A DNA stretch of 31,175 bases, from contig JBIOXR010000105.1 in NCBI GenBank assembly GCA_044869735.1, positions 1 to 31,175 on the forward strand, written 5' to 3'. Within the stretch, counting starts at the first letter, position 1; each line of letters opens with the position of its first letter. The notes beneath the pieces were generated by a model. The model searched no databases. It worked only from the letters and a program-made list of their open reading frames with translations, and was not told where the DNA came from. The DNA is from Chlamydiales bacterium. GTDB lineage: Bacteria > Chlamydiota > Chlamydiia > Chlamydiales > JAAKFR01. Of the stretch, positions 25,920-28,718 are shown in pieces. The position numbers were made by a program, and so were the translations under genes.

Positions 25920-26631
25920 CTCGTCCTATAACAGCAATACTATCAGTAAGGGGAATATTTTTGGGACAGACTTCGACGCAATTCTGCGCATTCCCGCAAT
26001 CGCTAATTCCCCCTTTTTCCATCAACGGCCGCAACCGCTCCCTTTTTTGGAGCCTACCTGTGGGGTGGATACTAAATAAGCGGGCCTGGGAAATGACGGC
26101 AGGGCCTATAAACGGAGATTTTTCATTAATTTGAGGACAGGCTTCGGAACAGCAGCCACAAGTCATACAGGTTGCCAGAGAAGCCATGATCTCTTGCTTG
26201 GCCGGAGTGACGGGCGGGCCACCTCCTTGAGTAGACGATCCTTCTGTGTCGATCCAGGCATGGACTTTTTTTAATCCCTCAAACATGACCGAACGATCGA
26301 CAATGAGGTCTCGCACTAAAGGAAATTTAGTAAAAGGAGCCAGTGTGATAGTGCGGCATCCCTTTTTTAAATAGTTTTCTATAATGGCTGTACACGCTTG
26401 GCGGGGAAATCCATTGATGAGCATGGAACAGGAGCCGCATACCTCTTCTAAGCAGCCTGCTTCAAAGGCCACTGGGGTAACGATTTCTCCTTTCGCGTTC
26501 TTACAGAATTTCTGAATCTCTATGAGGGCTGAAATTACATTCTCTCCTTCGCGCAAAGGGAGCTCGAACTCTTCCCAGTATTGCTTCCCGGGAGACCCTC
26601 TCCAAATTTTCAGAATAAACTTCTGTTCCAT
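25867..26631 (-). CDS. sdhB: Succinate dehydrogenase iron-sulfur subunit
   Basis: CLEEVCGSC...RQAC, CMTCGCCSEACP and CGNAQNCVEVCP Fe-S motifs. Confidence 0.97.
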   Translation of the reverse strand: MEQKFILKIWRGSPGKQYWEEFELPLREGENVISALIEIQKFCKNAKGEIVTPVAFEAGCLEEVCGSCSMLINGFPRQACTAIIENYLKKGCRTITLAPFTKFPLVRDLIVDRSVMFEGLKKVHAWIDTEGSSTQGGGPPVTPAKQEIMASLATCMTCGCCSEACPQINEKSPFIGPAVISQARLFSIHPTGRLQKRERLRPLMEKGGISDCGNAQNCVEVCPKNIPLTDSIAVIGRDVTLQAFRDFLTLHEKE

Positions 26632-26646
26632 GAACCTATCCTACTA

Positions 26647-26777
26647 ATCGAAAATAACGCTTTTTGCACCTTTTTTCACCTCTTTTGACGCCGCTTCTTG
26701 GCCTACTTATTCAAGTATGTCCTGCGAAGCGGCGTCAAAATATGTGAAAAAACCCATCAAAAATCATTAGTTTCGAT
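26647..26777. mobile_element. Palindromic element copy 2 (hairpin A), putative non-autonomous MITE-like element
   Basis: Perfect 15-bp inner stem TTTTGACGCCGCTTC (26683-26697) / GAAGCGGCGTCAAAA (26726-26740), with further pairing out to ATCGAAA/TTTCGAT. Flanked by TA at 26645-46 and 26778-79. Shares its core with 7421-7584. Mobility is inferred. Confidence 0.6.
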
Positions 26778-26779
26778 TA

Positions 26780-26824
26780 TAGTTGATTCAGATTGAAAAG
26801 GAACATTTTGACCTGAATCAACTA
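26780..26824. mobile_element. 45-bp mini inverted-repeat element (hairpin B), putative MITE remnant
   Basis: 12-bp perfect IR TAGTTGATTCAG (26780-26791) / CTGAATCAACTA (26813-26824) with a 21-nt loop. Flanked on both sides by TA (26778-79, 26825-26). Confidence 0.45.
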
Positions 26825-26837
26825 TAGTAGGATAGGT

Positions 26838-28718
26838 TCAAATATGTGTAGATAGATTAACTGGGATATTTTTTAAAGTAGGCTTAACTTTCTTTGCGAC
26901 GACGTAGTCGCGCGGCTCGGGATCGAGATGGCGTAGATCGACTTTCTCATAGGTAATCTCAGGTTCTTCCGAACGGTAGCTAGCAACCGTAGTCTTCAAC
27001 CAGTTCTCATCATCTCTCAAGGGAAATTCTTTTTTGTAGTGGGCTCCTCTACTTTCATTGCGATAGAGAGCCGATAAAGTGATGGCAAGAGCGATCTCGA
27101 GCATTGCTTTAAATTGATGGGCAAATTGAAATACCTGATTGGCGAACTGTCCTTTGTCTGAAAGGGAGATATGGCGATATCGCTCTCTTATCTCTTTAAT
27201 TTTGTTTACTGTCTCTTGCAAATCTTTGTTATTGCGAAGCACCGTTACATTGTGTATGAGCCAAGCGCCTAATTCTTCATGTAGCAGAAAGACATTTTCA
27301 CTTCCTTCTTGGGCAAAGAGCTCTCCCTTTCTCCTCTCTTCTTCTTGCACAGCTTCTTGGAAAATCGTTTCTGTTGGTGGCGGAAAGGAGAAAGAATCGA
27401 GATAACGGGACCCCTCTTCACCCGCGACTATGCCCCCAAAAATGCAAGCGAGCATCGCATTAGCACCCAAGCGATTTGCTCCATGATACTGGTAGTCCGA
27501 TTCACCTACATTGAAACAGCCGGGTATATTGGTCATTTGGCGAAAACGAGAGGCTCGGTCGACATCATCGGCTGCTGGCCAATCCACCCAGGCACCCCCC
27601 ATCGAATAGTGGACCCCAGGGAAAATTTTCATGGAGACTTTTCGGGGATCTTCTCCAGTAAACTTTTTGTAGATATCGAGCACCGAATCGAGCTTATGCA
27701 ATGTTTCTGGCGGGAGATGGGTAACGTCGAGATAGACGGCATTTTTTCCATCGACTCCCATTCCCATCTGGCACACGCGCATGATCTCTCGCGAACCTAC
27801 ATCTCGCGCCACCAGATTTCCATAACCGGGATAGAGCTCTTCGAGAAAATACCACCTCTCTCCTGTGATGCCGCAGGGAATGGGCTCTCCTTTTGAATTG
27901 AGAATTGTTTTGCTCGAATCTCCCCAAACCCAGACCCTACCTCCTTCTCCCCGCACCGATTCTGAGATGAGGCGCATTTTGTCAATGCCAGGAATAGAAG
28001 TTGGATGCACTTGAATGAACTCGCCGTTGGCATAGCGCATCCCTTGCATAAAAAGCCTTCCATTTGCTGCTCCCGTGCAGAAAGTAGAGTTGGTCGATTT
28101 TTTGAAAATTAACCCTGGACCTCCAGTAGCAAAGATAATCACGTCGGCTTTGAGGATCTCGAGCTTAAGATTAAAGAGATTGAGAAGAACAATTCCCCTT
28201 GCTCTTCCTTGGGAATCAAGAGCAAGGCGCAAAAATTCATGGTTTTCAAATTTTTCAACCCGTCCTTTCGCTTCAAACCTACGCACTTGCTCATCGAGAG
28301 TATAGAGCAGTTGCTGTCCCGTCGAAGCTCCGCAAAACACCGTGCGATGATAAAGCGTACCCCCAAAGCGGCGGACATCGATATTCCCCCTCGGGGTACG
28401 ATTGAAGGGGCAGCCACACCGATCGAACATATCGATAATGGAGGGGGCCGCAAAACACATCTCCACTACAGGAGGTTGATTTGCGAGGAAATCGCCTCCT
28501 TTGATCGTGTCGTAGGCATGGATAACAGGGGAATCGTCTTCCCCATAAACATTTACAGCAGCGTTTATTCCCCCCTGAGCGCATACGGAATGGGATCTTT
28601 TAACTCGCGTGAGAGAAATGAGTTTTACCCGCACATTTTTTTCTGCCAAACGCATCGTGCAGGAAAGACCCGCTAAACCTCCCCCTACAACAATCGCTTC
28701 TCTAGTTTCTCTCGCCAT
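26838..28718 (-). CDS. sdhA: Succinate dehydrogenase flavoprotein subunit
   Basis: IVVGGGLAG, RSHSVCAQGG (FAD-His), QVHPT, SESVRGEGG, HYSMGG, HGANRLG and ESRGAH motifs. ATG 28718 overlaps the sdhC end. Confidence 0.98.
   Translation of the reverse strand: MARETREAIVVGGGLAGLSCTMRLAEKNVRVKLISLTRVKRSHSVCAQGGINAAVNVYGEDDSPVIHAYDTIKGGDFLANQPPVVEMCFAAPSIIDMFDRCGCPFNRTPRGNIDVRRFGGTLYHRTVFCGASTGQQLLYTLDEQVRRFEAKGRVEKFENHEFLRLALDSQGRARGIVLLNLFNLKLEILKADVIIFATGGPGLIFKKSTNSTFCTGAANGRLFMQGMRYANGEFIQVHPTSIPGIDKMRLISESVRGEGGRVWVWGDSSKTILNSKGEPIPCGITGERWYFLEELYPGYGNLVARDVGSREIMRVCQMGMGVDGKNAVYLDVTHLPPETLHKLDSVLDIYKKFTGEDPRKVSMKIFPGVHYSMGGAWVDWPAADDVDRASRFRQMTNIPGCFNVGESDYQYHGANRLGANAMLACIFGGIVAGEEGSRYLDSFSFPPPTETIFQEAVQEEERRKGELFAQEGSENVFLLHEELGAWLIHNVTVLRNNKDLQETVNKIKEIRERYRHISLSDKGQFANQVFQFAHQFKAMLEIALAITLSALYRNESRGAHYKKEFPLRDDENWLKTTVASYRSEEPEITYEKVDLRHLDPEPRDYVVAKKVKPTLKNIPVNLSTHI

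Follow-up and report, generated by a model that had tools for sequence, protein, structure and literature searches.

The stretch analyzed here (31,175 nucleotides; referred to below as the window) is contig C105 of a soil Chlamydiales metagenome-assembled genome (MAG; G000, 1.45 Mb in 154 contigs, 91% complete), and the feature under study is the 206-bp spacer that separates two of its genes, sdhA and sdhB. The nearest relatives of the SdhB protein were all found in Chlamydiales or Parachlamydiales MAGs. DNA of the locus was also contained in the reads of four soil-metagenome runs from one study, and Logan contigs from these reads were placed over positions 25900 to 27600. The spacer is flanked by two open reading frames (ORFs):

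25867-26631, minus strand: SdhB, with Fer2_3 and Fer4 domains (4Fe-4S domains)
26838-28766, minus strand: SdhA, with FAD_binding_2 and Succ_DH_flav_C domains

The initial annotation had divided this spacer into two outer arms, two hairpins (A and B), and three TA dinucleotides, and every letter of that parse proved correct. The outer arms (26631 to 26646, TGAACCTATCCTAC followed by TA, and 26825 to 26840) are complementary at 16 of 16 positions; hairpin A (26647 to 26777, 131 nt) is imperfect, with arms 86 to 93% complementary; hairpin B (26780 to 26824) is 45 nt long; and the TA dinucleotides at 26645-26646, 26778-26779, and 26825-26826 mark the module borders. We found the palindromic unit to be one base longer on each side (26630 to 26841); the final base of the last sense codon of sdhA, the stop of that gene, and the AT that opens the sdhB start codon thereby belong to it. 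A search of 26500 to 26950 gave no direct repeats, no Rfam family came near its gathering score for the spacer, and a promoter and terminator scan of the spacer returned no terminator and one promoter-like site, the number expected by chance. Our reading of this region is that it holds a nested pair of MITEs (transposable elements of the miniature inverted-repeat kind), with B lying inside a single 165-bp palindromic element made of the outer arms and hairpin A (probability roughly 0.85). The features on which this reading is built are as follows:

26630-26841, minus strand: composite, a probable palindromic MITE (165 bp, ATGAACCTATC family) that B interrupts, filling the entire sdhA-sdhB junction
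26630-26659, no strand assigned: sdhB-side terminal inverted repeat, plus-strand sequence ATGAACCTATCCTACTAATCGAAAATAACG (family consensus ATGAACCTATCYCACTATTSG)
26660-26765, no strand assigned: conserved core of the 165-bp family (inner hairpin A), the aligned part 78% identical to the copy on contig C129 of this genome
26766-26779, no strand assigned: inner sdhA-side arm ending in the target TA of B (26778-26779), mirroring 26645-26658
26780-26824, no strand assigned: B, a probable 45-bp IS630-type MITE with ends TAGTTGATTCAG, with an empty-site allele and a twin, and apparently a deletion derivative of a palindromic MITE of ~180 bp
26825-26826, no strand assigned: second copy of the TA target, from the insertion of B (the 2 letters at the joint fit either side)
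26827-26841, no strand assigned: tip of the sdhA-side terminal inverted repeat, plus-strand sequence GTAGGATAGGTTCAA, containing the end of the sdhA ORF (other copies use the same TGA)

Comparison with relatives indicated that the spacer as a whole is an insertion. Among 29 sdhA-sdhB junctions from the same family and order, including that of the window, the two genes lie -4 to +20 bp apart at 26 loci, often with an ATGA overlap, and the 206-bp spacer was found in this genome only. SdhA terminates here as NIPVNLSTHI*, at the same alignment position as the NIPxxIxLP[ILV]* of its relatives. With spacing this tight (-4 to +20 bp) as the rule among relatives, we interpret the spacer as inserted DNA. 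SdhB was matched best at 71% among metagenome contigs and at 79% among species genomes, none of them from the same genus. Genomes within the sister genus g15 are 68 to 73% identical, so that filled and empty junctions of that genus are comparable at the gene level only. No empty site of the 165-bp element was found in the closer relatives. Unrelated spacers occupy the same junction in two other genomes (147 bp at locus L050 of G018; 85 bp at L051 of G030), so the junction was hit independently in these two.

The next question is whether the outer arms and hairpin A are one element or several. We fetched 20 copies of the related repeat from genus g15; these carry the ends (C)ATGAACCTATC[CT]CACTATT[CG]G... 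on both arms, and in each such end the outer arm of the sdh locus runs directly into what had been taken for the tip of hairpin A. Tip-to-tip length was exactly 165 bp in 17 of the 18 g15 copies in which both ends were recognized, and removing 26778 to 26824 (47 nt) from 26630 to 26841 also leaves exactly 165 bp. Without B, the sdh copy aligns end to end with 19 canonical 165-bp copies from g15 (of the 20 fetched), all of which end in ATGAACCTATCYCACTATT. Of the 19 positions of the consensus used in the search, its sdhB-side tip matches 17 and its sdhA-side tip, which starts TTGAACC, matches 16 (our own counts). The ends of the family read ATGAACCTATC...GATAGGTTCAT, and alignments place the conserved core, with its loop ..GGCCTACTTATTCAAGTATGTCC.., in the sdh copy as well. 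Therefore, the comparison shows, at the level of sequence, that hairpin A and the outer arms are one canonical 165-bp element. The TA at 26645-26646 corresponds to the conserved internal ..CAC TA TTCG.. of the family end and is for that reason not a target duplication. The idea that the outer arm is a repeat family of its own was rejected: within this genome it was found at the sdh locus only (at up to 1 mismatch), and the g15 copies show it to be the canonical end.

These data bear directly on the history proposed in the initial annotation, in which A and then B inserted successively, each duplicating a TA, into a pre-existing 30-bp palindrome or into a third element. Three TAs do stand at the module borders between perfectly complementary outer arms, and short palindromes made only of family ends do exist, one of 36 bp (G041:C15:23628-23663) and one of 51 bp (G020:C1:1500994-1501044), each perfect or near-perfect and consisting of two tips joined. 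However, the arms of these palindromes continue past the TA (..CACTATTCGAATAGTG..), and because that sequence is kept, we regard them as internal-deletion derivatives and not as empty targets. Moreover, the arms together with A recur as the canonical 165-bp unit in about 20 or more copies elsewhere, with the TA as a conserved internal position, and no copy of 26647 to 26777 alone was found. Successive insertion of A and B is thus very unlikely and already largely refuted. Because arms and A form one unit, the 30-bp palindrome left after removal of A and B represents the two tips of that unit, not a target that preceded it, and the three TAs reflect one nested insertion with one TA duplication. 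Part of the proposal survives nonetheless: a TA-duplicating insertion and an IS630/Tc1 derivation both hold for B, but not for A, which is no separate insert, and the suggestion that an element ends in the outer arms was right in spirit, these being the ends of the 165-bp element that includes A.

The 165-bp family is common in this chlamydial family and is multicopy in several of its genera. In this genome, core copies were found at C105:7444-7565 and on contigs C129, C149, C21, and C54, and the same core is 69 to 80% identical to copies in four other genera. One gene pair carries the element in G041 and is empty in G020 and G014. Judged from its copy number in several genera and from this filled and empty pair, the family is evidently mobile. 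Canonical ATGAACCTATC ends set the sdh copy apart from all others in this genome, and no other 165-bp copy here has a nested IS630-type MITE. The other core-bearing copies of this genome extend ~25 nt beyond the equivalent of 26647 to 26777 and have other ends, with five copies ending in (A)GAGAC or GAGTG flanked by TA versus the one canonical-end copy. A 3-bp TNA/TWA duplication of the IS5-like kind seemed to fit five variant copies, but their ends read better as TA plus (A)GAG..., and we discarded this candidate; the corresponding domains DDE_Tnp_1 and DDE_Tnp_4 were not found in the MAG. In run X2, a 151-nt contig placed on 26643 to 26715 represents a diverged canonical copy (6 other letters in 73) whose tip adjoins a different flank (outward ATGAGTTATTTCTTGCATTT), with an ATG again formed at the tip. 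This copy presumably comes from another chlamydial genome of the same soil.

Copies of the 165-bp element in G041 carry nested inserts of other kinds. One (L301, G041:C37:53490-53885) holds a ~165-bp palindrome that has the ends CCTGAGTTTTGGGTT and shows a duplication of ~7 bp; in another (L302, G041:C43:24650-25115) the insert measures ~225 bp, has the ends CAGCAATTCCCGCCG, and shows a duplication of 9 bp, TCCCACTAT. With B, this makes three unrelated nested families with differing duplication lengths, which would point to the element as a permissive landing pad rather than to TA-specific attraction. The initial annotation had raised the possibility that palindromes attract such elements; the nested inserts fit tolerance of insertions in palindromes at least as well.

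Hairpin B, in contrast to hairpin A, behaves as an insert in its own right. A 600-nt contig from run X2 follows the locus over 26221 to 26777 with 3 other letters and then resumes at 26825 to 26867, skipping 47 nt bounded by TA..TA; the skipped nucleotides (26778 to 26824) equal B plus one TA. The short side of this joint reaches 27 nt into unique sdhA sequence, and the core that is identical between both arms of the element is only 23 nt long there. Because this core is shorter than the assembly word length, which we take to be 31, and because the joint extends into unique sequence, the joint should not be an artifact of the palindrome. Contigs from runs X1 and X3 carry B: a 2984-nt contig of X1 spans 26295 to 27600, and a 215-nt contig of X3 spans 26603 to 26817, crossing the border between A and B without mismatch. 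In a near-identical strain, the 165-bp element is therefore present and B absent, and B behaves together with one TA as a discrete unit. Given that this strain without B is present in another soil sample, we consider B a recent, still polymorphic insertion. Of the empty or single-insert alleles that the initial annotation had anticipated, the B-less allele is thus at hand, while an empty site of the 165-bp element is not. The genome also contains a twin of B at C60:1894-1942, 98% identical and likewise between TAs, and of the 27 genomic sites that match the end motif of B, 23 are preceded by TA (TA background, 5.2%). The expectation that each module would have TA flanks was borne out at the ends of B; no solitary copy of A was found.

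B is the short member of a larger group of repeats. Palindromes of ~180 bp with the ends of B, TATAGT[TC]GATT[AC][AT][AG], were found at at least 19 contig ends and three internal sites, and about 20 long-form B-type ends were counted in G000. B corresponds to the left 36 nt of this long element joined to its right 12 nt at an ACCTG microhomology; it thus appears to be a deletion derivative that itself moved. The B end motif is strongly overrepresented in 11 of the 17 genera of the family, reaching 127 copies per genome, compared to 0 to 2 for the reversed control.

The ends of B also match those of complete insertion sequences in related genomes. DDE_3 matches were present in 12 of 28 relatives, with 13 in G014, and the IS630-family elements of the relatives are ~920 bp long, flanked by TA, and encode HTH_Tnp_IS630 and DDE_3 (NF033545). 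In G044, one such element (~918 bp; L291:1448-2365) is TA flanked, with ends TATAGTCA[AT]TTCAATTGAAAATT / TATAGTCAATTCAATTGAAAATT, and contains two overlapping ORFs with HTH_Tnp_IS630 (E = 3e-32) and DDE_3 (E = 4e-36; NF033545, 119 bits). Its sister in G015 (L237, ~1501-2418) has ends TATAGCAAATAAACTTGAAAATTTTAC that match long MITEs at C37 and C56 of this genome, and in G018 a DDE_3 ORF ends beside TATAGTCGATTAAGTTT. The insertion sequence ends agree with the first 24 nt of B at 16 of 24 positions ungapped and at ~20 of 24 with one gap (our own count), and the G018 end agrees with the long form at C64 of G000 at 20 of 24. Together, the TA duplication, the matching ends, and the small, noncoding, dispersed, multicopy form place B among the IS630-derived MITEs. 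The overlapping ORFs of the G044 and G015 insertion sequences encode an HTH_Tnp_IS630 part of 123 to 131 amino acids and a DDE_3 part of 161 to 167 amino acids, an arrangement that suggests a programmed frameshift. Two inverted B-type end pairs ~2.5 kb apart (G009 and G021) were considered as candidate transposons and rejected; they enclose housekeeping genes, such as hpf and recO, and no transposase. In the literature on chlamydial MITEs, nothing specific was found.

Several further observations concern the distribution and structure of the B-type repeats in this genome. The contig ends that fall inside long B-type palindromes include those of C64, C29, C138, C118, C43, C125, C15, C58, C100, C84, C148, C54, C2, C21, C133, C83, C69, C10, and C135, and these repeats are probably a main cause of the fragmentation of the assembly into 154 contigs. 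Long palindromes at C37:5585-5775, C56:15176-15340, and C88:4135-4300 and at the ends of C133 and C69 share an inner core, ..AAAGCTCCCGCGATTGATCGATCGTAA.., and at least four end modules were distinguished (TATAGTYGATT, TATAGCMAGATAAC, TATACCAAATATCAT, and TACCAGATCC); conserved cores with exchangeable ends are a pattern that the long palindromes and the 165-bp family have in common. Two sites, C56:13414-13447 and C36:1066-1097, have a single B-type end (TATAGTTGATTCAGG..) ~30 nt upstream of an ATG start; these ends could be relics whose present role is that of a 5' leader or of a -10-like TATAGT box. Within the window, a solo B-type end (TATAGTCGATTCTAATCTGAATCGC, minus strand) at 503 to 526 adjoins the 3' end of an ORF that runs off the start of the window.

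The link to IS630 also weighs on another way in which the two hairpins could have arisen, namely, as REP-like or IS200/IS605-type hairpins moved as single strands by a Y1 enzyme (RAYT/TnpA), with TA as an adjacent recognition site and not a duplicated target. Both elements are near-perfect hairpins, the sdh arm begins with GTAG like some REP families, and the 2-letter overlap at the joint cannot formally separate a duplication from an insertion beside a TA. Nevertheless, the B-type ends are the inverted ends of TA-flanked insertion sequences with DDE_3 and HTH_Tnp_IS630, GTAG is not kept in the 165-bp family (the position reads AGTGGGATAGG or AGTGAGATAGG), sizes of 165 bp and ~180 bp exceed those of REPs, and no Y1_Tnp was found in the MAG. 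We consider Y1-mediated movement highly improbable.

To describe how the 165-bp element sits between the two genes, we examined its tips on the mRNA strand. At the sdhA end, this strand reads ..CAT ATT TGA ACC TAT CCT AC.., of which T TGA ACC TAT CC is the tip. The sdhA stop TGA (26840-26838) therefore lies inside the tip (offset 0), from which the last Ile codon also takes its third base. Toward sdhB, the strand reads ..GTAGGATAGGTTC ATG GAA.., with the sdhB-side repeat ending in ..GTAGGATAGGTTCAT. Here the element contributes an AGGA that resembles a Shine-Dalgarno motif, 7 nt upstream of the ATG of sdhB, and, as its own last two bases, the AT of that ATG (26631-26629), whose G comes from the flank (offset -2). 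By ORF mapping of the 10 canonical copies with long flanks, the AT of the tip plus a flanking G forms the downstream ATG in 6, and the upstream gene stops at the TGA of the tip in 3. An open-frame test on 80-nt flanks in three frames (13, 10, and 10 of 40 ends open) was uninformative and was replaced by this mapping. At the gene pair that carries the element in G041 but not in G020 or G014, taking out the element plus one AT gives back TAG as the stop, at the homologous position; applied to four other loci, this AT rule yields ATGA or TAATG overlaps (our own reading).

In the mRNA sense, the predicted fold of the spacer is far more stable than that of shuffled sequences (-100.2 versus -44.0 ± 4.4 kcal/mol; z = -12.9) and still reaches -88.5 kcal/mol without B. 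With or without B, the U of the UGA is predicted to pair with the A of the AUG at the base of the outer stem. Such stability, with the stop and the ribosome-binding site paired, is what a native, conserved regulatory RNA of the sdh operon spanning the whole 210 bp would show. However, 28 of 28 relatives have the same junction without this spacer, each module recurs as a dispersed repeat, samples differ in whether B is present, and Rfam holds no family near its gathering score, all of which leave an RNA of this kind barely credible. A chance close to negligible also attaches to an assembly artifact, in which repeats were misjoined in a fragmented MAG: 154 contigs with at least 19 ends in related palindromes would allow it, but independent Logan contigs from three runs (X1, X2, and X3) cover the junctions.

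We return, then, to the nested pair of MITEs, for which the data show that the 165-bp element is a single unit of that length, that B has an empty site and TA flanks, and that the ends of B match those of IS630-family elements in relatives. By this reading, a 165-bp element would have landed exactly at a tight stop/start junction of sdhA and sdhB, where its tips would have supplied the TGA for sdhA and, for sdhB, the AGGA together with the A and T of the start codon, leaving both genes intact. Later, the 45-bp B would have entered a TA in the sdhA-side arm of the element and duplicated it, mobilized in trans by an IS630-family transposase that is presumably missing from the incomplete assembly; the cognate IS630-family element would be expected to have ends TATAGTTGATTCAG. 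The transcript would fold so that stop and start meet at the base of one stem, and a ribosome finishing sdhA would open that stem and free the sdhB ribosome-binding site, by which coupling of the two genes could be kept.

A number of results count against this account. Profile searches of the MAG found no DDE_3, HTH_Tnp_IS630, DDE_Tnp_1, DDE_Tnp_4, or Y1_Tnp, and a tblastn search found no match to the G044 transposase, although these negatives do not show absence in a MAG that is 91% complete and whose 154 contigs in many cases break inside these very repeats. Multicopy insertion sequences are typically lost from MAG bins. The window itself holds no transposase, as the initial annotation had stated, and the IS630 transposases with matching ends for which it had called were located in G044, G015, and G018 but not in the MAG. 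For the 165-bp family, no autonomous partner was found among the DDE_3 loci of the relatives or among end pairs in G041 and G020. The B-less allele rests on one Logan contig with a depth of ~4. The sdhA-side tip reads TTGAACC and not ATGAACC, and the five other core-sharing copies in this genome have different, TA-flanked ends, so the history of the ends is not simple. Applied to the sdh locus, the AT rule (whether by duplication or by insertion between A and T) predicts an sdhA that had no stop before the insertion; since it rebuilds no stop here, the original junction is not reconstructable. Finally, translational coupling through opening of the stem is something that we infer purely from the modeled fold.

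The placement of the tips allows a further, more tentative proposal, which we hold to be possible but doubtful: that the 165-bp family is built for operons, homing to the AT of a start codon at tight junctions, rebuilding the stop, ribosome-binding site, and start there with its tips (A-TGA inward and AGGA-N7-AT outward), and aiding reinitiation by a terminating ribosome across 165 to 212 nt by means of its RNA hairpin, which would keep stop and start close together.

The two elements have counterparts among known repeats. RUP of Streptococcus pneumoniae, derived from IS630-Spn1, inserts at TA, and other mobile elements are often its hosts (PMC2229807). B resembles RUP in being small, noncoding, palindromic, inserted at TA, nested, and provided with IS630-family-like ends; it differs in length (45 versus 107 bp), in the phylum of its host, and in sequence, which is unrelated. 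In addition, the presumed transposase of B was found in related genomes only and not in its own MAG. Correia/NEMIS elements combine TA duplication and long inverted ends with a hairpin RNA, and the transcripts of both ERIC and Correia elements form long hairpins (PMC2229807). B is similar to Correia/NEMIS in its TA duplication, its long terminal inverted repeats, and the hairpin RNA that would form upon cotranscription. A published Correia variant end from Neisseria, tatagtggattaaatttaaacc (PMC5039591), agrees with the long B-type end TATAGTCGATTAAATTTGAAAT (C15, C84, C10, and C135) at 18 of the first 20 bases (our own count). The likeness is confined to these first ~20 nt, however; the host phylum differs, the interior is unrelated, and the lengths are 45 and ~180 bp versus 107 and 155 bp, which place B outside the Correia/NEMIS family.

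For the 165-bp element, the closest comparison outside the chlamydiae is with the MIRUs of mycobacteria and with repeats of the RPE and ERIC type, which also occupy stop/start junctions of operons without breaking genes. MIRUs are tandem, nonpalindromic units of 46 to 101 bp with short ORFs, whereas the 165-bp element is a single palindrome, and unlike MIRU, ERIC, and RPE it rebuilds the stop, the Shine-Dalgarno motif, and the start with its own tips. REP/RAYT repeats, which are palindromes of 20 to 40 bp headed by GTAG or CGTC and accompanied by a Y1 transposase in the genome, do not match elements of 45 to ~180 bp. Within the chlamydial 165-bp family, in contrast, the sdh copy shares the canonical length, ends, core, and stop/start placement.

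Nesting itself is an ordinary event, and nested MITEs are of known kinds; distinctive here is that the smaller insert is absent from a sister strain. What is new is the canonical-end copy at sdh, its nested IS630-type insert, and the polymorphism of that insert. The corrected anatomy is that of a single nested insertion that needs no special palindromic target. More broadly, an abundant chlamydial repeat family, with up to 127 end motifs per genome, is now tied to identifiable IS630-family insertion sequences, a link that helps annotation and assembly, these repeats being a likely cause of MAG fragmentation in this genome. The near-identity of B-type ends to a Correia repeat, together with the IS630 ends in chlamydiae, provides a lead on the type of transposase that moved Correia elements. 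For the organism itself, the presence or absence of B between samples constitutes population evidence of current or recent IS630-type MITE movement in an uncultured soil chlamydia, a lineage in which transposition is not open to bench study. The locus is also a natural example of a coupled gene pair that was split by 206 nt of hairpin and kept its stop, ribosome-binding site, and start, in which coupling is testable. If the doubtful proposal of an element built for operons were true, the 165-bp family would be an operon-safe transposon, with arms able to accept cargo, B in this genome and two other MITE families in G041.

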